A stretch of 64,000 bases of DNA from Gamaleyavirus NAN33P5: the sequence record OZ035750.1. One strand, written 5' to 3'. Below are positions 45,418 through 61,153 of this stretch, piece by piece. The number at the start of each line of letters is the position of its first letter. The stretch's first letter is position 1. Below the pieces are notes generated by a model. The model did not search any database. It was not told the origin of the DNA and saw only the letters and a program-made list of their open reading frames with translations. The position numbers and the translations under genes were made by a program.

Positions 45418-46728
45418 TTAGAAAGTTAGACCACCATACTTACTGGCAAGATTGCCATAGAACACTACACGCTTACGGGCACGAGACACAGCAACATAAA
45501 GCAGGCGGGCAACCATATCAGGTTGGCGACAGCTTGAGAGGTCATTTGCATCAATGAAGATTGTGTCGTAAGTAGAGCCTTGTGATTTATGAACAGTACA
45601 TGCATGTGTAGCACGTAGGTCTGGAATAGTTTCTTTAAGACGGAAGTAAGGTTCCCAGTTCTTCTCTTTACCTAACCACTTAACCAAACGGTTGAAGTAG
45701 TCTGAGTCTGTAGGGACTGGGACTTCACTAACAATACCACCATAACCAAGGTCTAGAGTACTATCACGGACTTCCAGTTCCAGGTCACCTGTAACCTGAA
45801 TCATGCGAGTACTACTATCCTGGTCGATAAGTTTTACTTCTTGCTCAATAGACAGACGGTCTTCCTTCCCTAAGCGAACGGCTGAGTTAGAGACTAGCTG
45901 TTCACCAATGGAGTATTCACCTACATATCCGTTAGCTTCACGAATGTAGTTATTGTAATTAATAACCTGGTCATTGGTGTAAGCGACAATACGGCTATTG
46001 GTAGGCTGAGTGAAGTGACTGAGAACCAGTTTCTCCATCTCTTCACCCTGTACCCAGTCAATAATTCCTGGAATACATTTAATAGGCAGGAAGCCTGTCT
46101 TACCTTCCACCGTATCACGCAATTGCTGGTGCAATGCTTTGAGTTCTGGTGTATCGGTACGCATTTGTTCAGTCAGATAGTGTGTTGGGATATTACCTGC
46201 ATACACTGGAGACTTACTCTCTTTAACAGGCAGAAGCTGAGAAGCATCACCTACGAATACCAGTTTACACTGGTGAGTACCTTCACGAGCATACTTAAGT
46301 AACTGACGGTCAATCATGGATGCTTCATCTACGAAGATAATCTTGTTCTTCTTAATGGTGAATGACTTAGAGGGTACGACATTAGCCTCACCAGTCTTAA
46401 AGTCATTCTTAACAATCAGCCCCTGAAAGGAATGATAGGTAGACGTTGGACGCCCGGTAGCTTGAGCCAGAACTTCAGCAGCTTTGTTCGTGGTCGCTGT
46501 CATGACAACTTCGTTATACAGGGGCTTGGTTCCCATCAGAGAACAGGTTTCCATATATGCAGGCATAGTGTCATCAATAAGGTGCGACATCAGGAATGTC
46601 TTACCAGTTCCTCCAGGTCCACTGATTCCGAACTCTGTGGCATTAGGGTCGAGCAGGAAGTCGAAGAACTCCTTCGCAACCGCTTCTTGCCCCTGGTTCA
46701 ATGGGGCTTTGGTAGGTTTGGAAAACAT
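45418..46728 (-). CDS. SF1 DNA helicase (Dda/RecD-like)
   Basis: 436 aa; Walker A 'GPGGTGKT', Walker B 'IIFVDEASM', motif 'TVHKSQGSTYD'. Confidence 0.8.
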   Translation of the reverse strand: MFSKPTKAPLNQGQEAVAKEFFDFLLDPNATEFGISGPGGTGKTFLMSHLIDDTMPAYMETCSLMGTKPLYNEVVMTATTNKAAEVLAQATGRPTSTYHSFQGLIVKNDFKTGEANVVPSKSFTIKKNKIIFVDEASMIDRQLLKYAREGTHQCKLVFVGDASQLLPVKESKSPVYAGNIPTHYLTEQMRTDTPELKALHQQLRDTVEGKTGFLPIKCIPGIIDWVQGEEMEKLVLSHFTQPTNSRIVAYTNDQVINYNNYIREANGYVGEYSIGEQLVSNSAVRLGKEDRLSIEQEVKLIDQDSSTRMIQVTGDLELEVRDSTLDLGYGGIVSEVPVPTDSDYFNRLVKWLGKEKNWEPYFRLKETIPDLRATHACTVHKSQGSTYDTIFIDANDLSSCRQPDMVARLLYVAVSRARKRVVFYGNLASKYGGLTF

Positions 46729-46739
46729 TTAAATCTCCA

Positions 46740-46765
46740 GTAAAAAACCCTCCGTAGAGGGTTAG
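46740..46765 (-). terminator. intrinsic terminator (minus sense)
   Basis: accctc-cgta-gagggt hairpin with plus-strand A-run = U-tract on minus transcript. Confidence 0.65.
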
Positions 46766-47214
46766 ATGTATGGTTTTAAGTTGGGCTTGGTGTAATGCGG
46801 TCCTTTCATTACTTTCTGATTCTCGTTGAAGATAGGATTACCATCTTCGTCGAACTTGGAATAGTTTGAGCGATTGACTTCAGCCAATGCTCCAGGGACA
46901 TTCATCCCAAGGAAAGTACCGACGCCAGTTGCTGTAACGATCTGGTCTGCCAGAGCATCCAGAAGTTCCTGACGGTCTTCTTCTTGAATGAAGAAACTGT
47001 CTTCTTCCTGCTTCAATAAGTTAGAAATGAAGCGTAAATGTTTACGAGCATCATCTAACTTATTTTTGTAACCAGGGTATTTAGTCTGGAGTACATCCAG
47101 CATTTCCACTACTTCTTCCAGATGGCAACCCATCTGGGTACTGATGTTCTTACTCGTCGGATTCGGTACTGCGATTTCAAACCATTCTTTGGTTTTAGTG
47201 ATAATATCTGACAT
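46762..47214 (-). CDS. putative MazG-like nucleotide pyrophosphohydrolase
   Basis: 150 aa, predicted all-alpha with acidic 'HLEEVVEMLD' segment; assignment by resemblance only. Confidence 0.3.
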   Translation of the reverse strand: MSDIITKTKEWFEIAVPNPTSKNISTQMGCHLEEVVEMLDVLQTKYPGYKNKLDDARKHLRFISNLLKQEEDSFFIQEEDRQELLDALADQIVTATGVGTFLGMNVPGALAEVNRSNYSKFDEDGNPIFNENQKVMKGPHYTKPNLKPYI

Positions 47215-47216
47215 TG

Positions 47217-47687
47217 TTATTTCCCATGATTTGGGTGAAAGTTATAGAGTATTTCAGCGTCTTTCCTGGCTTTTGCAGCCTCATTTAAGTCATCAAATGT
47301 GCCCAAATGCTTTCGTTTACCCTTGATGGTTATACTAGCTAACCAGTTAGAGTCACGTTTATTCCAGCATACGCCTGTTACCCCAGAAGTATTCTTAGGG
47401 GATTTTGCTCTATTCCTATGATTATCTAAGACTGTAACTAATCTTAGATTCTCAATTCTGTTATCCAACTTGTCATGCCATATATGGTCAACCTGCATAC
47501 CTTCCGGTATGGGTCCGTTGTGCATCTCCCAGATTACTCTGTGAACTAAGAAGTTCTCCTGTAGATACTGGAATTTCAGGTAACCACTCCCATTTGGCGA
47601 GCCAACTAAATCTCCTATTTTAGTTCTGTTTCTATGTTTTACAGCCCAGTAGAGCTTTCCTCTACTGGGCTGAATATTTCTTTCCAA
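47217..47687 (-). CDS. free-standing HNH homing endonuclease with AP2-like DNA-binding domain
   Basis: 156 aa; 'HRVIWEMHNG...VDHIWHDKLDNRIENLRLV' HNH motif plus 'SGVTGVCWNKRDSNWLASITIKGKRKHLGTFDDLNEAAKARKDAE' AP2-like domain. Confidence 0.8.
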   Translation of the reverse strand: MERNIQPSRGKLYWAVKHRNRTKIGDLVGSPNGSGYLKFQYLQENFLVHRVIWEMHNGPIPEGMQVDHIWHDKLDNRIENLRLVTVLDNHRNRAKSPKNTSGVTGVCWNKRDSNWLASITIKGKRKHLGTFDDLNEAAKARKDAEILYNFHPNHGK

Positions 47688-47712
47688 TTATGCATTGATA
47701 CCTCTATGGAGA

Positions 47713-48099
47713 TTATTCTTTACCCTCATGTGCACGAAGGTATCGGATATGGGCAGGCAAATCGGTTGCCTGTCTGTTTTTATAGGCATCCAGTAATAGA
47801 TCACGAACAAACTGTCGGATTTCATACTTCGGCCCTAATTGCTCCGCAATCCAATCTACAATTGGAGTAGGCATTGGTGTAAGAACATTCTCCATAAAAG
47901 TTCTGCGAGTGTCCGCTGGTTCTATATTCAATGACCGCAGACGTAGTGTAACCGTAGTGGGGTGAACCCCCAACGTCTTAGCGATAGTTGCGAGGGACAG
48001 ACCAACAGCATTCATACGAATGATGTCTTCATCAGTTGCTTTGCGATTACTTCTGAATACTTTACTCATAGTACATTTCCTCTTCAAATTTACCCTCAC
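47713..48099 (-). CDS. HTH DNA-binding protein
   Basis: 128 aa; 'LSLATIAKTLGVHPTTVTLRL' helix-turn-helix. Confidence 0.4.
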   Translation of the reverse strand: MRVNLKRKCTMSKVFRSNRKATDEDIIRMNAVGLSLATIAKTLGVHPTTVTLRLRSLNIEPADTRRTFMENVLTPMPTPIVDWIAEQLGPKYEIRQFVRDLLLDAYKNRQATDLPAHIRYLRAHEGKE

Positions 48100-48295
48100 T
48101 TTATTATAAGTGAGGGCATTTGAACAGGCTAGGACTGGTTCTTATACCATTCCCCGAACTCTTTCATTGCATCTTCTAAGGACAAGCCTTCGAAGAATTG
48201 ACCAAAGTGCCCGTTGTACATTACACAAATCCTTGTAACGGTTTGCTTTTGGGGTGTGATTACTTCCCGTATATCCACCTTATCAATGCTAACCA

Positions 48296-50347
48296 TTACT
48301 TGGCAGCCTTGACTAGCTTGGTTGCTAACTTAGCTTCTTCTTCAGTCAGACCCATTGCAGTGAATGACTTCTTAGCATGACGCTTATAGTCTTGCAAAGC
48401 ATGGCCTTTCTGATAGTCAGAGTAGGACGTATCGTTCAGGATGCTACGCAGGTTATCAACGTGTTTACCAGATGGTGCTACCTTAGTAGCAGTAGCCGAA
48501 CGGTTAACCTTAGTTTGCTTCACCGGTTTAGGTTTACCGATTGGTTTAGCTGTGTAGGTTGTACGTACATCAGCAATCTTAGATACCACATCGGAACCAA
48601 CACCCAAAGCAGCCCATGGCTTACGAGCCTTACCCCGCATTTCCACAAGTAAATCAGCAGCAGCTAATTTATCTTCTGGAGTAGTAGCGTTAAGGAACTC
48701 TTTGATCAGTTCCTGAATTTGTTCTTTCACAGTAGGAGCCTTATTAACAATAGGTTTAAGGTCAGTAGCCTTCACTGGTTCAGCAGCTAAAGCTTCATTC
48801 AGTGACTCTTCCATATTCAGTGCTTCTTTACTGGCAACTGTACGGAATTGTTCTACAGAACCAGATGAGAGATTAGTGTATTTGAGGTTAGTGCCATAAT
48901 GTCCACCAACCATGACAAGTGTGGTAGGTGAACTATGGTTCCCAACGATGGCATCATTAAGCAACTTCTTACCTACTTCTGTCTTAGACAGGTAGATACC
49001 ACTGTTAACGTTGCAACGTTCCTCTTCCGGTAGTTCAGCAATAATGTGATACGCAGCTACACGCATCTTATTAGTGTTGTACTCAGGAACAGCAAATACA
49101 TCTTCTGGTGCTACTTTACCAAGGATAGTTACGTTACCACCGAAGTGACGGATGTAGCTCATGGATGCTACGTGCAGACCATTAGAGCAGTCTTGTCGAC
49201 GGTCAGGGTCTACCAGGTCTTCTCGTACCTGTACTTTACAGCCTACCCACTGACGGATGTTGCCTGAGTGACAGTCAACGAATACACGTTTACCATTTTC
49301 TTCACCCCTGAACTTAAGGCGTTTCAGGAACAGGATTGAGCCATCATCAGCGATAGGTAGTTCAGCAGTTTCCATGAATTTCATCAGGTCTTCTACTGAG
49401 TGCAGACGGTCTTTAATAACCGGAGCCAGACGCTCAAGGAACTTAGTAAAGCCCTTGTAGTCTTTCAGCTTGGCAGACTGACGCAGATGACGGTGCAGGT
49501 TCTCAACCCCAGGGATAACCCCATTGTTGGTAACAGCAACAACCACTTCATCTTCCTTCACATCAGTGTGGAAGTTAGCATCATCGGTGCTGATAGCACC
49601 TAATGCAGCCAGCTTCTCTGAAGCAGCAGCTAGCTTATCCTGGTTCGTAGTTTTAGCTACTTCCACATAAGGTAGTGGTGTTTCCTCACGGTTGGTAAAT
49701 ACAATGTGTACACCTTTGATGTTCTGAGCTTGTTTAGCAAACTCACCCATTTCATCATCAGATACTGCACGAATTGCAATAGGCCATTCTTGTGCAAGAG
49801 TACGAGCGGTGTGGGCATACCCCCAGCATAGTACGTCGTTAATAAAACGAACCAGTGCAGGATGGTTATGGTCCTTGTCCCAACCAATAACCCACATCAG
49901 ATTGTCACGTTTGTCGTAACAACCATCTGCTACCGTTACTTCTGGTTCATTAGCCTGGACAGCCAGGAAGGTATCCATAGCTTTAGATACTAATGTCTTA
50001 GTAGGATTACCCAGCTTAATATCTGAGACGATACGGGCTGGTTGAACACCTGTACCATCCTTAAAGAACTCTTTGAGTTTAGCTTTAGCTACCTTGAAGA
50101 AACGAACGAATCCGTTGGTGTTCTTCTCTGCTTCCAGATATTCAGTACGTAATTCTACTTCTGGTGCAATGTTTACTTCTATTTGATCATGAGTAGTACC
50201 CAGACCTTTAGTCTGTGCTTCAGACACAATGCGAGCAACCCGTGGGTCGCTCTGAGGATATACAACCGTGGAGCCATCAGGCTTCCACAGCGTGAGGTTT
50301 CGACTGTCAACTGCCAGTGCGATGATAGAAATCAATTCGATTTTCAT
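48296..50347 (-). CDS. rIIB-like protein
   Basis: 683 aa, directly downstream of rIIA-like gene (T4-like rIIA-rIIB order); no motif-level confirmation. Confidence 0.45.
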   Translation of the reverse strand: MKIELISIIALAVDSRNLTLWKPDGSTVVYPQSDPRVARIVSEAQTKGLGTTHDQIEVNIAPEVELRTEYLEAEKNTNGFVRFFKVAKAKLKEFFKDGTGVQPARIVSDIKLGNPTKTLVSKAMDTFLAVQANEPEVTVADGCYDKRDNLMWVIGWDKDHNHPALVRFINDVLCWGYAHTARTLAQEWPIAIRAVSDDEMGEFAKQAQNIKGVHIVFTNREETPLPYVEVAKTTNQDKLAAASEKLAALGAISTDDANFHTDVKEDEVVVAVTNNGVIPGVENLHRHLRQSAKLKDYKGFTKFLERLAPVIKDRLHSVEDLMKFMETAELPIADDGSILFLKRLKFRGEENGKRVFVDCHSGNIRQWVGCKVQVREDLVDPDRRQDCSNGLHVASMSYIRHFGGNVTILGKVAPEDVFAVPEYNTNKMRVAAYHIIAELPEEERCNVNSGIYLSKTEVGKKLLNDAIVGNHSSPTTLVMVGGHYGTNLKYTNLSSGSVEQFRTVASKEALNMEESLNEALAAEPVKATDLKPIVNKAPTVKEQIQELIKEFLNATTPEDKLAAADLLVEMRGKARKPWAALGVGSDVVSKIADVRTTYTAKPIGKPKPVKQTKVNRSATATKVAPSGKHVDNLRSILNDTSYSDYQKGHALQDYKRHAKKSFTAMGLTEEEAKLATKLVKAAK

Positions 50348-50351
50348 CAGA

Positions 50352-52913
50352 TTATTTACCTTTCAGTTTGTTTAGACGATTACGGTAGAGGGACTTAAAC
50401 CCAGGAATATCCTCTGGATTCTTCTTGAGATGTTTAACTAAACTACCTAAGTCCAGTCTCTGTAGAATGTCGCCAGCACTCCAGTTATAACTGAATAGTC
50501 CTTTGTACTCGTTAAGTACTTCGAAATGCTTATGCATACGAGGATTAACCATCCTTACATATGGCACTAAGACATCTACTGACTTAATGAGGCCCATCTC
50601 AACAAGTTTCTCTTTGTTGCGTGAATGACTTCTTAGGAAGTCACATGCCCATTCATATTCTGGTTTAAAAGTCAGACTCTGTAATGGTTTGAATGTTAGA
50701 CCCAGGATGTCGAGGATTTCCCAATATTCTCTGTCATCCAGTCCTACGTATTCCAGAACACCGATACGTTGCTCTGTGGCGTACTTCTTGAATCCCTTGC
50801 TGGTAATAACAGACATCAATTCATTAAGACGAATATCATCAATGTGAATAGCACCACGACGTTTGGCTTTGTTAACTTCGATTTGATTACGACAGACAAC
50901 AGTCTCTGCTTTCATCTCATCAGACAGTTCATACCATTTCCACATGGTTCCAATCTGGGCAGTTTCTGGTCTACCAGAAACAACCTGACTGGCTGGTACG
51001 TAGTACTTAGGTAATTCTACTTCAACAAAACCAGACTTCTCATGGAAGCTCGGGTCAGCAAACTCCCCCTGAATATATGGCCTGGATTCCCAATCACCAC
51101 TCGTATTTCGTTCACGAATAGTACCTAGTACAGCATTCAATGAAACCAGTGCATTAGTTTTACCGCCTGCTTTGGTTTTATTGGCAGCTATTGTCTTAGC
51201 ACGCTTCTCAGCAGCTATCTTAGCCTGTTCCCTGCGGAAGTTAGTTGGCTTGTCCCACTCATTATACTGAGTAAGGTCAATTACCCGATAACCCATAGCA
51301 GTGAACTTAGCTACAGCTTCTTCTGCTTCACCCTTCTTAGGTCCAACGACGTGAACAAAAGCTGTACGCTCCAGATCACCTCGGTTGTACTCAGGGAAGT
51401 ATGAGAAAGAGTCTGCACAGTCAGATAAACGTCTTGTAACTACAACGTTCTTGGTAGTGAATATACCGATACTCAAATGGCTGTTATATCTCATCTTAAA
51501 GTAGTCAGTAAGTTTACCCTTCACCAAGTCAACACTGTTACCCTGGTTCATTATGTAACCAGACCACTTAGCGCCAGTAGCTTTTAATGCAACAAGCTGA
51601 GGTAAGTGCAGATGACGGTATACTAAATCCTGGAATAAGGATGTACCGTCTGTACGAGTATGCTTAAGAGCACGCATAGCCTTACTATACAGTTTCTTAA
51701 GACCTGCATATTCAGGGCGAGCCAATAATGCCTTGTTGGATAGATTACGCCAGTGCTTAATATGATGCTTACGTTGCTTAGCCCACAAGCTAGAGGACAT
51801 ATAACGTTGAACAATTTCGTCTGTAACAACACCCAAGAAAGATGGATAGTCCCAGTAACGAGTAGAAGATTGGGAGGCATATTCTTCAATCTGCTTAATA
51901 GCTTCAGGAATCTTAGCCTTAATCTCTTTCTCCATTCGATCTACTAAATCTACACATAGAGCAGTAATACCATCGTCAGTTAACTTCTGGTTAGACAGTG
52001 TTTCACGACTAGGGGCAATAGCTAAGGTATCTGGTGCAGCCTGAACTACTAAAGTGTCAGCACCAATGATATTCATGAAGTTGAGAATAAGACCTACAGC
52101 CTCTTCACTAGCTGGACTGGATACTATTGGGTACATTACGTTACCGTAACGAACAAAGATGTTACTGCTACCCATATAGCCTTGATACCAGCTATTGGAC
52201 ATATCATATGAACCAGGTTCAAATGACATACCCAGCGTATTCAATAGAGTGTAGTCACCTTGCTGAATACTATTGCCTGCTTCTGTTTTAATGAGTTTAG
52301 GGATACTAAGCTCAGCTTTAATCTCACCGTTAAATACGATTGATGTGATGTAATGCACGAAGGTATTTACATCATGTTTACCCAACTGGAATTTAACTTC
52401 CAGACCGGATTCCTCAGTAGGAATATTGGTAACAATAGGAACAATACCCGGTTTACCATCATTCTCAATCGCAGCCTTAGCTACGTTATATACCGACATC
52501 TTTCCCTGGTTCCATGAAGTAACCTGGAAGCTGTCTGTATAAGCGAATGGGGATTTACATCCCAGACCAAAGCCACCAGTAACACTACTGTTGGACTTCT
52601 TGGTAGATGCACCATAGACACCATAAATGGAACCAATGAGTTCATCCGGGATTCCGTTACCAAAGTCACGGAAGGTAATAAAGTTGTCTGTATCAATGGT
52701 GATACGGATAGGAGTATCAGTCTTACCTGCTTCAATATGAGCATCCCAACTGTTACAGATAGTCTCACGGACTACTGCCAGAGTAGGGTTGTTATATAAG
52801 GAAGTACTTAATACGTGAAAGAATGCCGGGTCATCAGAGATGCCAAAGGCAATTGTTTCTTTGCCACCCAGTGTCGCTGAAGTGGCTGATTGATTGGTAT
52901 CTGCAACTAACAT
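50352..52913 (-). CDS. rIIA-like protein with N-terminal GHKL-type ATPase fold
   Basis: 853 aa; N-terminal 'ETICNSWDAH...FRDFGNGIP...GGFGLGCKS' resembles HATPase_c motifs as found in rIIA. Confidence 0.6.
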   Translation of the reverse strand: MLVADTNQSATSATLGGKETIAFGISDDPAFFHVLSTSLYNNPTLAVVRETICNSWDAHIEAGKTDTPIRITIDTDNFITFRDFGNGIPDELIGSIYGVYGASTKKSNSSVTGGFGLGCKSPFAYTDSFQVTSWNQGKMSVYNVAKAAIENDGKPGIVPIVTNIPTEESGLEVKFQLGKHDVNTFVHYITSIVFNGEIKAELSIPKLIKTEAGNSIQQGDYTLLNTLGMSFEPGSYDMSNSWYQGYMGSSNIFVRYGNVMYPIVSSPASEEAVGLILNFMNIIGADTLVVQAAPDTLAIAPSRETLSNQKLTDDGITALCVDLVDRMEKEIKAKIPEAIKQIEEYASQSSTRYWDYPSFLGVVTDEIVQRYMSSSLWAKQRKHHIKHWRNLSNKALLARPEYAGLKKLYSKAMRALKHTRTDGTSLFQDLVYRHLHLPQLVALKATGAKWSGYIMNQGNSVDLVKGKLTDYFKMRYNSHLSIGIFTTKNVVVTRRLSDCADSFSYFPEYNRGDLERTAFVHVVGPKKGEAEEAVAKFTAMGYRVIDLTQYNEWDKPTNFRREQAKIAAEKRAKTIAANKTKAGGKTNALVSLNAVLGTIRERNTSGDWESRPYIQGEFADPSFHEKSGFVEVELPKYYVPASQVVSGRPETAQIGTMWKWYELSDEMKAETVVCRNQIEVNKAKRRGAIHIDDIRLNELMSVITSKGFKKYATEQRIGVLEYVGLDDREYWEILDILGLTFKPLQSLTFKPEYEWACDFLRSHSRNKEKLVEMGLIKSVDVLVPYVRMVNPRMHKHFEVLNEYKGLFSYNWSAGDILQRLDLGSLVKHLKKNPEDIPGFKSLYRNRLNKLKGK

Positions 52914-56810: not shown

Positions 56811-57985
56811 TATTTCATTCCTTTAGGGATATGAACTACCTCCCCAAAAGGTACGGTAGCATTAGGATTATTCAGAACACACCAGATGATAGGGATATCA
56901 AATGGTAATTCTTCCATAGGACGAACATACATATCGGAGAATATGATTGCAGCGGTTGGCTTATTCTTAATAATCCATTCACGCACTGGTTCAAGGTTTG
57001 TACCACCACGACCAGTAATCTTAATCTCTTCAAAAGTATCTTCTTCAGTGATGTCCATCTCTTCTTGGATAATATCGTCGAAGGTAATTAAGGACATCTT
57101 CTTAGGATTGAACTGGCTCTTAACGTAGGCAACCTCTGAGTTAAAACGCAGAGAGTCAGCACTACTAATAGAACCAGATACATCCTCAAAGTAAGCTAAG
57201 TGTCGTAAGCGTCCTTCATCATCTTCCAGAGAAGGTAGATAGATGTCAGTGAAACGACGGTTAGGTCTGGCCCATGTATAGTGTGAGTCATCAATGTCGG
57301 TAAAGAAGTTCAGTAGGACTTCCTGCCAAGGAACCACTGGTTTAAGGAATTGGGTAATAACCTCTTCCATACGACCAGCACCCTTACCAGGCATCATTCC
57401 ACCAGCCATCTTCTGGCTTTGCATTGCACGTACTACGTTGTTGACAACAGCACCCTGGGACTGCCCCGAAGAGGGAGCTTTCATGTCGCCAGCAAGACCT
57501 GCTCCAGCACCCCCTGACGGCTTCTGCCTTTTCTGAGGGTTCTTCATCAGGTCATCGTAGATGTCTTCTTCAACCCATCCTTTATATTGAGGGTCTTTGC
57601 AAATGCCTTTATCGATACCAGTGAACTTGTAACCATCTTCCTCTAACTGAAGATTAATGAAGTGATCACATGCCTGGTTCCAGACTTCCGGGTCACGGCT
57701 TCCACAACGGATGCCATGGAGATATGCCACATGCCAGAGTTCGTGCATTAGTACTGTTTCTCTTGCATCGGGACACATCCAGACAAAGAAGTCTGGGTTG
57801 AAATGGAGTTCTATCCCATCAGTACATGCAGTGGGGCAGTCTTCACGTTTCCATGAGAACTTAAGACTACACAGCAATGAACCAAAAAATGCAGCAGAGC
57901 GTCCAAGGAATGCATTAGCCTGAATACGGTCATACTCACGCATGAGTTGTTCATCACTAAGTGTGTGCTGAGGTATCTGGTTCAT
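56810..57985 (-). CDS. VWA-like/putative metallopeptidase (DUF2201-like) protein, partner of MoxR-type ATPase
   Basis: 391 aa; HExxH 'HELWHVAYLHG' in N-terminal half; immediately downstream of split AAA+ ATPase gene. Confidence 0.55.
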   Translation of the reverse strand: MNQIPQHTLSDEQLMREYDRIQANAFLGRSAAFFGSLLCSLKFSWKREDCPTACTDGIELHFNPDFFVWMCPDARETVLMHELWHVAYLHGIRCGSRDPEVWNQACDHFINLQLEEDGYKFTGIDKGICKDPQYKGWVEEDIYDDLMKNPQKRQKPSGGAGAGLAGDMKAPSSGQSQGAVVNNVVRAMQSQKMAGGMMPGKGAGRMEEVITQFLKPVVPWQEVLLNFFTDIDDSHYTWARPNRRFTDIYLPSLEDDEGRLRHLAYFEDVSGSISSADSLRFNSEVAYVKSQFNPKKMSLITFDDIIQEEMDITEEDTFEEIKITGRGGTNLEPVREWIIKNKPTAAIIFSDMYVRPMEELPFDIPIIWCVLNNPNATVPFGEVVHIPKGMK

Positions 57986-57992
57986 GTTGTGA

Positions 57993-58398
57993 TTATCCGT
58001 GAATGTAACGAGAGATGTTGGCAGCAGCCTTACGCCATTCAGGGGTAGCCTGAATTTCTGGTAATGCTTTACCTACTGTACGGAAGTACAGAATCTTATG
58101 GGTGAACGTTTTAAAGCGTTCAATATACTGAAGTACATCAGCGAAGTTATCTTCAGTAGTCTTGTTAGCCAAATGGTTAACGGTAGCCCAACACAGGTTA
58201 TTATCTTCCGGTAGTACACAGCCCAAAGGGTCTTTAACTACCTTCTCAATCGTAATCATACGATTGTATACCTGAGTGAACTGAACAAATTCTGTAGCTT
58301 TACCGGCAGTAACGTGGCCTGCATAGTAGATAGAATCTTCATCAGGCAGAGCACCTTCCGGTCGGTTCTTAAGGTCTTTGTTAACAAAGTCCCAAGTC
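57993..58398 (-). CDS. MoxR-like AAA+ ATPase, exon 3 (C-terminal part)
   Basis: Frame continues from inferred 3' splice site (about 58399); ORF-track fragment 57993..58421 starts at a TTG inside the intron. Confidence 0.5.
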
Positions 58399-59261
58399 GT
58401 GATATTCGACGTAGTTCGCAAGACTACGCCCGTTCTCTTATGAACTGCTGCATGTCACCATGCAGACTAGACTATATCAACACCCTTAGCATTACCTGTA
58501 GGGTGGCTACCATTTCGAGCATCATTAGCTTATGCTCTACTCCCTCCCGGGATAGTCGTTGGACATTTATGGAAGTCAGAAATTACGTTTACGTCTAGTA
58601 TCCCCAATTGAGTCCAGATAGGCATCTACGGCTTTAGCAGCAGCTACCTCATCTTTAAACTGTTTGTAGAATACTACCTTGTAATTATCTTTAACCTTGG
58701 CTTCGTAATAAGTGTAAATTTTATCTTTATACTTACTACGACGTATGTGCACATTATGGTACACAGACTTACCTGGTTTAGGGGCTAGCCCAGTTTTATG
58801 AGCATGGAGATTATTGTCTTGTGTGGTGCATGGTTCCAGGTTGTCTTCATGGTTATTCTCCTTATTACCATCTAAGTGGTTAACAGGATCACCATACTTA
58901 AAGCCTGGTTTAAATGCTGCACAAACGAGTTGATGAATAGTTTTCTTATGGGTCTTCCCATCTTTGTACATAGAGGCATACAGATAGCCTAATCGGTTCT
59001 TGTTAAGTGCCCTGATAAGGGGCTTAACTTCTCTGTACTTATTTACAGATTGGCGTGACTCATGCTTACGGTATTTACCTGTATTAGATACTTGGTATAA
59101 ACCTTCAAATTCAACAACATCTTTCCAAATCTCACTCATGCTGACTCCCAATTTAGTAACGGATTGACTTTTACATATTACCTTTAGGCAACAGAAAGTA
59201 AAGTGTTTCCCGTTTTAGGCAGCTTTAGACAGGGAATTACTCCCCTGAATCGCAGTGTGTT
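58399..59261 (-). mobile_element. group-I-like intron B carrying HNH homing endonuclease ORF (boundaries approximate, 5' end uncertain)
   Basis: Interrupts ATPase ORF; contains HNH ORF 58576..59151 and a conserved about 150-nt core shared with intron A. Confidence 0.5.
58576..59151 (-). CDS. intron-encoded HNH homing endonuclease (NUMOD4-like N-terminus)
   Basis: 191 aa; 'EIWKDVVEFEGLYQVSNTGK' and 'HQLVCAAF...VNHLDGNKENNHEDNLE' HNH motif; TTG start in track. Confidence 0.75.
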   Translation of the reverse strand: MGVSMSEIWKDVVEFEGLYQVSNTGKYRKHESRQSVNKYREVKPLIRALNKNRLGYLYASMYKDGKTHKKTIHQLVCAAFKPGFKYGDPVNHLDGNKENNHEDNLEPCTTQDNNLHAHKTGLAPKPGKSVYHNVHIRRSKYKDKIYTYYEAKVKDNYKVVFYKQFKDEVAAAKAVDAYLDSIGDTRRKRNF

Positions 59262-59596
59262 TACGAGGACAACAGAATGTCTTGTTCTTATGGGCAGGGT
59301 CGAAGTCGTGCAGATAGCCAGGGTTAGCATGTAAGAATGCAACCAGACGCTCATCCCATTCTTGTGGAATCATTACGTCTTCAACAAAGATGTCGAAGTT
59401 AAGTTCCATTTCGAAGTGGACAACACGAGACTGCATTGCAGTACCCAGTGGGTTAACGATGGCTCGGTCAGTAGCTTTGTTACCGGCACAGATAATCATC
59501 ACATTAGGGTGAAGTTTTTTCTGTCCAGTCATACGGTCTAGAATCAGTTTGTATGCAGCAGCTACTACTTCTTTCTTAGCTGAGTTGAATTCGTCG
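59262..59596 (-). CDS. MoxR-like AAA+ ATPase, exon 2 (Walker B / sensor region)
   Basis: Begins 'DEFNSAKK...MIICAGNKATDRAIVNPLGTAMQSRVVHFEM'; joins exon 1 to give 'GWLLFLDEFNSA' Walker B; 3' boundary approximate. Confidence 0.5.
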
Positions 59597-60478
59597 CATT
59601 ATCTTCACATTAGTTCGCAACTACTAATGCCGTCAGTACACTCAGTGAATACTGACTGCTGCATGTCACCATGCAGAGGAGACTATATCAAAGCCCTATT
59701 GCTAGGGCTGTTACCGTTTCGAGTGCCATTGGCTTGCACCCTACTCTACTCACTTCCACATTTCTGTGTGTTTTCGATAGTCGTTTGGCGTTTAAATGAA
59801 ATTGGTACTGTACCCAATCTGTGTAAGATTGTTGTTAGTTACGTAGGAGTCATAGGCTTTGGCAGCCTCTTCCTCTGTTTTGTAACGTCCCAAACCAATA
59901 GATTTCTTGTTAACCCTTATATGGGCACACCATCTTTGTCTTTGCTCACTCCAGGATACACCTACGTATTTGGAGGAGCCTCCACGATTTTTGTTACTAG
60001 CGTTGGCATGTCTGTTTGACAATAATCCAGTATCCCAAGCATGTTTAATATTTTGGGACTGGGTACACCATTCCAGGTTACTCTCGTGGTTATTAAGAGG
60101 GTTTCCATCTATATGATTAATAACTGGATAGTTATTGGGGTTTGGTACAAAGGCTATGCCTACCAGACGATGAACTTGATATTTGTACACTTTACTATTC
60201 ATGTACAGGTTCACGCAGTAGTACCCTTTGTTATTAAGATACGGTTTTATATGTGTCCTATTTTTGTATTTATACTTTCCTTCTTTTCGGCGTACTACAC
60301 CAAAGTTGGAAACTTCATACGGTAAGTCGGGCACATCTTTCCAAATTTCATTATTTAGCACAGGATTGTCTCCAATTGATTAAAACTCAAGTATACACCT
60401 GAGCCAACCATATTAGAAGAGGTTCCCTGTTTAGGTAACTTTCGACATGAGATTGCTCTCATGAAGCCCCGTCAGTTA
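59597..60478 (-). mobile_element. group-I-like intron A carrying HNH homing endonuclease ORF
   Basis: Inserted exactly within the Walker B codons; exon 1 ends in U, inferred intron ends in G; contains HNH ORF 59792..60361 and the conserved core 59611..59788. Confidence 0.55.
59792..60361 (-). CDS. intron-encoded HNH homing endonuclease with AP2-like domain
   Basis: 189 aa; 'EIWKDVPDLPYEVSNFGVVRR', 'HRLVGIAF...INHIDGNPLNNHESNLEW' HNH motif and 'YVGVSW...RWCAHIRVNKKSIGLGRYKTEEEAAKAYD' AP2-like domain. Confidence 0.8.
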   Translation of the reverse strand: MLNNEIWKDVPDLPYEVSNFGVVRRKEGKYKYKNRTHIKPYLNNKGYYCVNLYMNSKVYKYQVHRLVGIAFVPNPNNYPVINHIDGNPLNNHESNLEWCTQSQNIKHAWDTGLLSNRHANASNKNRGGSSKYVGVSWSEQRQRWCAHIRVNKKSIGLGRYKTEEEAAKAYDSYVTNNNLTQIGYSTNFI

Positions 60479-60792
60479 AGGAACAAGAGCCAGCCATTAT
60501 AACCTTCTGGTACTTCGTCACCCTCGATAGGGAATAAGTCAGCGAAAGGGATAAACTCTGCACGATCACCATTACGGAATGGTAGACCAGACAAGTCTTC
60601 CGGGGCAGAAGTAGACAGACGATGGTCAATCAGCTTCATGCCAAATTCTTCTGCAACAGAACGAATAATTGCAGACTTACCCATGCCAGGTGATGAAGTC
60701 AGGAACGGTACGTTACCTGCTTGCAAGGCACGGATAATAAAGTTACGGGCTTGGCGTGTATTACATACAGTCAAGGAGTCAATGCTCGCCAT
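60479..60792 (-). CDS. MoxR-like AAA+ ATPase, exon 1 (Walker A)
   Basis: 'FLTSSPGMGKSAIIRSVAEEFGMKLIDHRL' P-loop; ORF terminates two codons after 'GWLLFL' where the intron begins. Confidence 0.55.
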
Positions 60793-60826
60793 TTACTTAC
60801 TCTCCTAAAGTTAATGGAATTACTAA

Positions 60827-61153
60827 TTAAGATTTAACGCAGGGATACGCTGTATCAATCGCTAACAGAACCATGTCTGACGATATTTTTACTGCATTTA
60901 CCTTTCGGTCATACAGAATAATAGATGCCACTCTGTCAAAAATGGGTCCTAACTTCATATCGTCAGGTACACAATTCTTTCCTGCTTCCACTCCCATAGT
61001 AACCATGCCCATGAAGTAACCCTGGTTCACAAAGTTTGCATTATTGGCTTTGTAATCAGCAGCAGCTTCCAACAAGGTTGCACGACTAGATGCCTGAGCA
61101 CCGAATGAAAGAACTGATAGAGCTACAAGAACAACAGCAATTAAAGTTTTCAT
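60827..61153 (-). CDS. secreted/periplasmic small protein
   Basis: 108 aa; signal peptide 'MKTLIAVVLVALSVLSFGAQA'. Confidence 0.4.
   Translation of the reverse strand: MKTLIAVVLVALSVLSFGAQASSRATLLEAAADYKANNANFVNQGYFMGMVTMGVEAGKNCVPDDMKLGPIFDRVASIILYDRKVNAVKISSDMVLLAIDTAYPCVKS

Follow-up and report, generated by a model that had tools for sequence, protein, structure and literature searches.

An HNH-AP2 open reading frame (ORF) lying next to a small gene for a putative helix-turn-helix (HTH) protein in an N4-type phage raises the question of whether the nuclease is encoded within an intron, serves the phage as a resident gene or belongs to a mobile element, and whether the copy found here is still functional. 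The window, by which we mean the whole stretch of 64,000 nucleotides that was analyzed (OZ035750.1), comes from a G7C-like N4-type phage (genus Gamaleyavirus; Schitoviridae). Over 5 kb around the locus it displays 96% identity to Klebsiella phage vB_Kpl_K57alpha1.2 (hereafter K57alpha1.2) and 88-94% identity to Mimir124, Bas96, PhAPEC7, G7C and others, and it contains, letter for letter, a 4.4-kb piece of Logan contig ERR12949720_4. All genes of the region are found on the minus strand, and the two ORFs of interest are located, as the earlier note had stated, between the helicase (45418-46728) and the rII modules (48296-52913); the coordinates of the individual features are given in Table 1. 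A scan of the locus for sigma-70 promoters and terminators performed no better than on shuffled sequence. The hairpin just upstream of gp35 is kept across the aligned relatives, the outermost stem pair differing in pSb-1 through a compensatory change, and is outside the mobile element described below. Rfam also gave a weak hit to sR084 (48092-48165, E 0.19), which was taken as chance.

Table 1. Features of the gp35/gp36 locus and its surroundings (positions in the window).
Feature	Position	Strand	Basis or remark
rIIA	50352-52913	-	First of the region in transcription order
rIIB	48296-50347	-	After rIIA
55-aa ORF	48129-48296	-	Between rIIB and HTH gene
Hairpin, 7-bp stem	48093..48116		Just upstream of gp35; annotated stem_loop in G7C
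HTH gene (N4 gp35 homologue, 118 aa)	47713..48069	-	PHROG 6377, 1.5e-61; tblastn
Inferred mobile cassette (gp35 3' part, HEG, first ~17 rebuilt gp36 codons)	47164..47950, ~790 bp	-	60-nt sliding comparison
Stranded native HEG 5' end	47639..47695	-	ATG 47695-47693, AGAGG 6 nt upstream
Perfect 13-bp inverted repeat, 5-nt loop, containing the frameshift	47642..47672		-15.7 kcal/mol as DNA
HNH-AP2 ORF body (156 aa if TTG 47687 is the start)	47217..47687	-	Pfam, PHROG and structure matches
gp36 homologue, MazG-like nucleotide pyrophosphohydrolase, 150 aa	46762..47214	-	PHROG 671, 9e-37; gene alignments
Dda-like helicase	45418-46728	-	Downstream of gp36 homologue
176-aa ORF, then DNA polymerase		-	Transcribed after Dda-like helicase

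The two other HNH ORFs of the window are intron-encoded, and the ORF studied here could by the same token be a third intron-encoded endonuclease, with the gp35 and gp36 sequences as its exons or within an unrecognised intron. The two intron inserts (58398-59261 and 59596-60477) are precisely missing from K57alpha1.2 and have a core of 36-43 nt in common, and an Rfam scan of 57800-61000 gave sub-threshold Intron_gpI matches around both of their ORFs. Although the same search detects both real introns (58448-58770 and 59659-59969), it returned nothing for Intron_gpI within 46000-49000, even at E<=10, and the 36-nt core occurs only twice in the whole window, at the two introns and nowhere near the 47217-47687 locus. 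Moreover, the genes that flank the endonuclease are full-length, separate homologues of N4 gp35 and gp36, and in endonuclease-free phages these genes overlap out of frame, which excludes their being exons of a single gene. The intronic reading is refuted by the Rfam, intron-core and flanking-gene tests, and we give it practically no weight. Given the absence of an intron core from the vicinity and the presence of complete, separate genes on both sides, the endonuclease gene is classified from these comparisons as a free-standing HNH-AP2 homing endonuclease gene (HEG). This agrees with the earlier note, which had based the free-standing state on the lack of a conserved intron core in the flanks and had named such a core, or spliced exons, as the findings that would speak against it.

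The protein encoded at 47217-47687 matched Pfam HNH_3 over approximately residues 47-91 (E 4.1e-22, 78 bits, cut-off 24.8) and PHROG 99 'HNH endonuclease' over its whole length (2.9e-61), and a match to Pfam AP2 over approximately residues 101-140 (E 8e-7, 29.7 bits) fell under the cut-off of 33.3. The nearest named proteins are gp40 of phiEB49 (54%) and the HNH proteins of T1 (50%). A search of the PDB by sequence returned nothing significant, the ApiAP2 structure 3igm being found only at E 0.69, and a fold search was therefore needed; NCBIfam yielded no useful result. Modelled with AlphaFold2 (pLDDT 90.5), the intact allele had I-HmuI (1u3e) as its first PDB match in Foldseek (E 7e-4, probability 1.00), and later matches were the AP2 domains of Arabidopsis TEM1 (7et5, rmsd 2.7 A) and of a Plasmodium ApiAP2 protein (3igm); against the AP2 domain of AtERF1 (1gcc) an rmsd of 1.2 A over 48 columns was obtained, with a target TM of 0.65. 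In the AP2 region the model has strands at 109-112, 117-124 and 127-134 and a helix at 137-150. The modelled endonuclease thus contains a predicted AP2 fold, that is, a three-stranded antiparallel sheet on one helix, together with a predicted beta-beta-alpha-metal fold, and the order HNH-then-AP2 is confirmed by fold and sequence alike.

These matches bear out the assignment of an HNH-AP2 endonuclease to this ORF. Across an alignment of 54 homologues D70, H71, N79, N92 and N95 are invariant, and the catalytic D-H...N...N..N residues are all kept in the ORF of the window (D67, H68, N76, N89 and N92), which agrees with the intact 159-aa allele (P0001) at every position of residues 8-156. The degenerate HNH motif that the earlier note had considered fatal to its reading is therefore not what the sequence holds. 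The likeness in domain layout to the intron-encoded ORFs was confirmed in part, as AP2 is detectable by Pfam in one of those two ORFs and not in the other. Membership of the CasPR (CapR+AP2) anti-CRISPR family was also considered and rejected, the protein having no CapR domain, an intact HNH and a different host range.

The HTH protein is 74% identical in amino acids to N4 gp35 (tblastn). Homologues of gp35 were found by tblastn in 159 phage records, including N4, among N4-like phages of Escherichia, Klebsiella, Achromobacter, Erwinia, Pseudomonas and other hosts, and the position of the gene between rIIB and gp36 is conserved in N4-like phages. By homology and position the HTH gene is thus a resident core gene of these phages and no companion of the endonuclease, and the two do not form an 'HNH plus HTH' unit. 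That a real ORF lies beside the endonuclease is correct, but its start had been placed too far upstream, given that all gp35 homologues start at ATG 48069 (MSKVF...), which has a good ribosome-binding site, and not at GTG 48099. The HTH profile matches themselves were weak and below their cut-offs (HTH_38 with 21 bits and HTH_23 with 19.8 bits in Pfam), and the N-terminal HTH of IS21 transposase scored 23.5 bits against a cut-off of 160. A literature search gave no account of N4 gp35 function. The window gene resembles N4 gp35 in its position between rIIB and gp36 and in its assignment to PHROG 6377, and differs in that the HEG-linked allele encodes 118 aa instead of 131 and is divergent in its C-terminal half.

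This difference coincides with the insertion site. In N4, G7C and Bas96, where gp35 encodes 131 aa, the two genes share 77 nt, the end of gp35 being read in a different frame as the beginning of gp36; IME11, F22 and PW8 likewise have a 131-aa gp35, with gp36 annotated from a later start in their records. The HEG is located exactly at this overlap. In HEG carriers gp35 is 13 codons shorter and ends in ...AHEGKE, about where the pSb-1 junction lies; a 17-nt spacer with AGAGG precedes the ATG of the HEG, and the ATG of gp36 follows 2 nt after the HEG stop codon, the new N-terminus MSDIITKTKEWFEIAV replacing the ancestral MTSSSVCTLENTRQWFLKAV. Over its 3' part of approximately 240 nt (from 47713 to about 47950), gp35 has a divergent allele travelling with the HEG: compared with G7C and Bas96, nucleotide identity is 93-100% at 48000-48200 and about 60% at 47800-47900, and positions 47700-47800 are unaligned in them. 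The 118-aa allele of gp35 is followed by the HEG in all ten public contexts listed and was found by tblastn in no HEG-free phage of the phage collection.

The presence/absence polymorphism among N4-like relatives that a homing endonuclease gene had been expected to display was indeed found, and at a fixed site. The HEG is missing from N4, G7C, Bas96, IME11, F22, PW8 and most of 61 related records, and is present at the gp35/gp36 junction in K57alpha1.2, Mimir124, pSb-1 and Kpn16-P2; among 40 related phage records listed, the extra segment of about 500 bp is carried only by the first three of these. At least 24 public contigs encode the 159-aa protein with no residue changed; on all of them its gene lies between gp35 and gp36, and the backgrounds vary both in gp36, which encodes 146-150 aa, and in the presence or absence of the 55-aa ORF and a 43-aa ORF. 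Furthermore, one HEG with its rebuilt gp36 N-terminus is joined to at least four unrelated middle segments of gp36, two of which are the alleles of the HEG-free phages G7C and IME11.

A putative mobile cassette of about 790 bp (Table 1) was delimited by a 60-nt sliding comparison. In five contigs (L016, L017, L020, L021 and L026) the cassette matches the window at 92-100% identity, for the most part 98-100%, and over 46988-47107, in the middle of gp36, the same contigs display only 33-47% identity to it; in all of them except L020 this middle segment is 83-97% identical to that of HEG-free G7C or IME11. The recombination breakpoints are sharp and lie in conserved islands at 47108-47167 and at about 47950-48066. 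The contigs used for this mapping were picked for carrying an identical HEG or gp35 protein, a selection that biases HEG diversity downward but does not account for the abrupt change between gp36 alleles; as nucleotide diversity within the HEG is low among contigs selected by exact protein, the argument uses the flanks and the allele switches only. The pattern is that expected from homing with short co-conversion tracts, and ordinary homologous recombination at the conserved islands could, without any endonuclease, give the same mosaic. In either case segments of gp35 and gp36 travel with the HEG, in keeping with the suggestion in the earlier note that the endonuclease may mobilise adjacent genes. 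A near-identical tract of 2.4 kb around the HEG was at one point regarded as a sign of recent transfer between the window and K57alpha1.2, and this was dropped, because the two genomes are 97-99% identical overall, with longer identical runs elsewhere, and the tract is not exceptional.

Over 1.1 kb around the HEG, the window and K57alpha1.2 differ at one site only. At codon 10 a TA-to-C change (47667-47669 on the plus strand) has left GGG where intact alleles have GTAG, the intact allele reading TTCAGCTACAGTAGAGG and the window TTCAGCC-CAGTAGAGG; each of the 20 other loci examined is intact at this site and encodes 159 aa. Due to this frameshift, which the earlier note had overlooked, the body of the HEG is out of frame with its own ATG and ribosome-binding site: ATG 47695 opens an ORF of only 18 codons in the window (MHNWKEIFSPVEESSTGL, followed by a stop), and in K57alpha1.2 and no fewer than 20 further loci it is the start of the full 159-aa ORF. 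The affected site is within an inverted repeat that is perfect in the window and imperfect in intact alleles (8 bp, internal loop, 4 bp; -10.4 kcal/mol versus -15.7 kcal/mol as DNA), and with the TA-to-C change its two arms have become exactly complementary. The perfecting of a quasi-palindrome is a signature of template-switch mutagenesis and is unlike the miscalling of a homopolymer. The change consequently argues, short of proof, for a real mutation over a base-calling error, and the frameshift as read from the assembled sequence is probably genuine.

Nevertheless, the endonuclease might still be active in this phage, either as a 156-aa product initiated at TTG 47687 or because the frameshift is a sequencing or consensus error, a possibility that deserves attention even though we judge it unlikely. 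TTG 47687 is the only entry to the HNH body in the window, and from this codon the frame is open to the stop, with every family-invariant catalytic residue kept and the remainder of the gene identical to the intact allele; yet the only Shine-Dalgarno-like sequence, AGAGG, is 13 nt away from this TTG, at a spacing that suits the out-of-frame ATG, and the product would lose W4, F8 and Y10 of the N-terminal beta-hairpin, the last of these being more than 90% conserved. As for an error, the 156-aa form is recorded only in NCBI and Logan assemblies of what is apparently one genome and probably one sample, and a read-level error may lie behind it; against this, the frameshift was recovered in both assemblies, and a complex TA-to-C change that perfects a quasi-palindrome is typical of template switching and not of a homopolymer miscall. 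The copy in the window is most likely inactive, and appears to have been inactivated recently, having thus reached the decay phase of the homing cycle. For the HNH-AP2 class it is typical that elements, once they have spread, decay by frameshift (PMC2248197, PMC10448857).

The gp35/gp36 junction is occupied by four divergent HNH-AP2 alleles in different phages. Allele A is that of the window and K57alpha1.2; allele B, from Mimir124, is 72% identical to A in amino acids, and the values between them (dN 0.21, dS saturated) indicate long-term purifying selection on the HEG; allele C, from pSb-1, is 47% identical to A; and allele D, unannotated in Klebsiella phage Kpn16-P2, is about 50% identical to C. 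The pSb-1 copy was briefly suspected to be a second decayed one, as RefSeq gives it 102 aa, but starting at an upstream ATG gives an ORF of the full 159 aa, which continues in frame from the former start codon of gp36, and allele C is therefore intact. In the genome that carries allele C, gp35 keeps a G7C-like sequence as far as the junction itself, which implies that the target of this allele must lie at or downstream of the junction. A regulatory role for the hairpin at the 5' end of the HEG was considered and set aside, since the hairpin is specific to allele A and not conserved in B or C. We may tentatively suggest, as a rather doubtful extension of these observations, that the 77-nt overlap is a long-lived homing hot spot at which four HNH-AP2 lineages, each bringing replacement ends for gp35 and gp36, compete with or succeed one another, cutting at this site driving the diversity of gp36. 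Between genomes that are otherwise more than 90% alike, the middle segment of gp36 has 33-47% nucleotide identity, and if the hot spot is real, repeated cutting and co-conversion would be behind this diversity.

Taken as a whole, the locus is best explained as a HEG of the phage HNH(HNN)-AP2 class at the gp35/gp36 junction that spreads by homing with co-conversion and whose copy in the window has been inactivated by frameshift, an explanation that we hold with good though not full confidence. In a mixed infection the intact enzyme would bind and nick or cut the uninterrupted gp35/gp36 junction of a HEG-free phage, with the AP2 domain presumably supplying DNA binding, and recombinational repair by phage functions would then copy the HEG and short flanking tracts into the broken genome. 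Homing with co-conversion of this kind would show up as marker exclusion, and carriers would be protected because their site is split and the flank has diverged.

A quite different role, in which the protein is a domesticated nuclease or DNA-binding regulator serving the phage through degradation of competitor or host DNA or through AP2 control of neighboring genes, finds a precedent in other phages, where AP2 domains have been recruited as transcriptional silencers (bioRxiv 10.64898/2026.02.23.707548), and would suit the tight packing of the gene in a replication-gene operon, with its stop only 2 nt before the gp36 start. The HEG is, however, missing from most close relatives and from N4, and is thus dispensable; it moves in a cassette-like manner, as a HEG does, its catalytic motif is conserved across alleles, and it is decayed in the window genome. 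Domestication is for these reasons very improbable in our view, and homing is retained as the preferred reading.

Comparison with known systems places the HEG more precisely. I-HmuI of Bacillus phage SPO1 (PDB 1U3E) shares with the window endonuclease a beta-rich region at the N-terminus and, after it, a His-Me (HNH/HNN) core that lacks zinc-binding cysteines in both proteins, at a sequence identity of only 19%; I-HmuI is encoded by a group I intron and has a C-terminal helix-turn-helix for DNA binding, whereas the window protein is free-standing and has AP2. I-HmuI nicks one strand, and by analogy enzymes of the window type may do the same. The free-standing seg and mob endonuclease genes of T4 cause marker exclusion, and resemble the window HEG in being intergenic between conserved genes, polymorphic and co-inherited with short flanks; they differ in that most are GIY-YIG or of a different HNH type, and in that the insertion described here resolved a 77-nt overlap and brings replacement ends for both neighboring genes.

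The closest likeness is to the HNN-AP2 or 'IPA-HNH' genes of Xp10/OP1/Xop411, T1 and ICP1 (Magnani 2004), which are free-standing, have the same HNH-then-AP2 order and share the boxes HR..W, DH, DNR, NLR and N. Members of this class are found beside essential replication genes, as is the case here, and often decay by frameshift or truncation (PMC2248197, PMC10448857). Nuclease genes have also been reported to mark the boundaries of genetic exchange (PMC10448857), a view that the cassette pattern fits. What sets the present case apart within the class is its occurrence in Schitoviridae, in Gamaleyavirus, and its site, the gp35/gp36 overlap; a literature search returned no description of the window locus or of this overlap as a site, and no published assay of cleavage or of biased inheritance. 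The window HEG is accordingly a typical member of the free-standing HNH(HNN)-AP2 class known from T1, Xp10/OP1, ICP1 and numerous other phages, and records of relatives already annotate the gene as 'HNH endonuclease'; specific to this locus are the site, the resolution of the overlap, the four alleles and the palindrome-perfecting frameshift.

For annotation, the HTH gene should be recorded as the N4 gp35 homologue with its start at 48069 and the endonuclease gene of the window flagged as frameshifted, and among relatives the annotation of the pSb-1 copy is too short and that of the Kpn16-P2 copy is missing altogether. Beyond annotation the import of the locus is small. It offers a convenient pair for homing studies in N4-like phages, namely K57alpha1.2 with its intact allele and the HEG-free G7C, and it provides a well-bounded example of a free-standing HEG that entered a gene overlap with its own replacement gene ends, illustrating how such a cassette spreads across phage backgrounds.

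Between the rIIB and gp35 genes the window carries a 55-aa ORF with no family match, which is present in the phages Bas96, IME11 and Mimir124 and missing from G7C, pSb-1 and several contigs, and which therefore constitutes a second small presence/absence polymorphism. An extra 43-aa ORF lies between gp36 and the helicase gene in F22, PW8 and one GCA_003604455 contig (loci L007, L008 and L015), and is not found in the window at the corresponding place, about 46729-46761. The middle of gp36, which encodes a MazG-like pyrophosphohydrolase, is hypervariable: it falls into at least five allele families that match one another at only 33-47% of nucleotides, while identity over the rest of these genomes exceeds 90%. 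This variation is seen both with and without the endonuclease gene.

Features of the window and of related phage loci
Feature	Sequence	Coordinates	Strand	Remarks
55-aa ORF	window	48129-48296	minus	between rIIB and gp35
Hypervariable middle segment of gp36	window	46988-47107	minus	
AAA-ATPase gene	window	57993-60792	minus	three pieces, two inserts between
Inserts in AAA-ATPase gene	window	58398-59261 and 59596-60477	minus	each with an HNH_3 ORF
Endonuclease gene, pSb-1	L004	2307-2786	minus	annotated as 102 aa from an internal Met; 159-aa ORF open
Endonuclease gene, Kpn16-P2	L032	1494-1970		same junction as the pSb-1 copy; no annotation

The ORFs in both inserts of the split AAA-ATPase gene combine NUMOD4 and HNH_3 domains, with AP2 additionally found in that of the second insert. 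A 43-nt core is common to the two inserts, each of which also gives a sub-threshold Rfam match to group I introns, and both are precisely absent from the Klebsiella phage K57alpha1.2. The polA gene appears to be interrupted in the phages of several related contigs (L011, L012, L016-L018 and L020), as suggested by the DNA polymerase product at their downstream ends: in the window this product has 859 aa, and in the contigs it measures only 551-605 aa. The interruption may be due to an intron, an endonuclease gene or a frameshift.

In the GenBank record of K57alpha1.2 (OY979416.1; loci L005, L009 and L010) the feature table is out of register with the sequence: a "virion structural protein" feature, for example, is placed over the HNH gene, and the annotation of the rII-HNH-helicase block falls some 31 kb away, on the opposite strand.

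When the window is compared with K57alpha1.2, the most diverged block spans 48400-52000, comprising the 3' end of rIIB and the rIIA/rIIB region, with 60-120 differences per kb as opposed to 0-30 elsewhere. This block marks a boundary in the genome mosaic, which lies upstream of the endonuclease cassette at a distance of about 700 bp.
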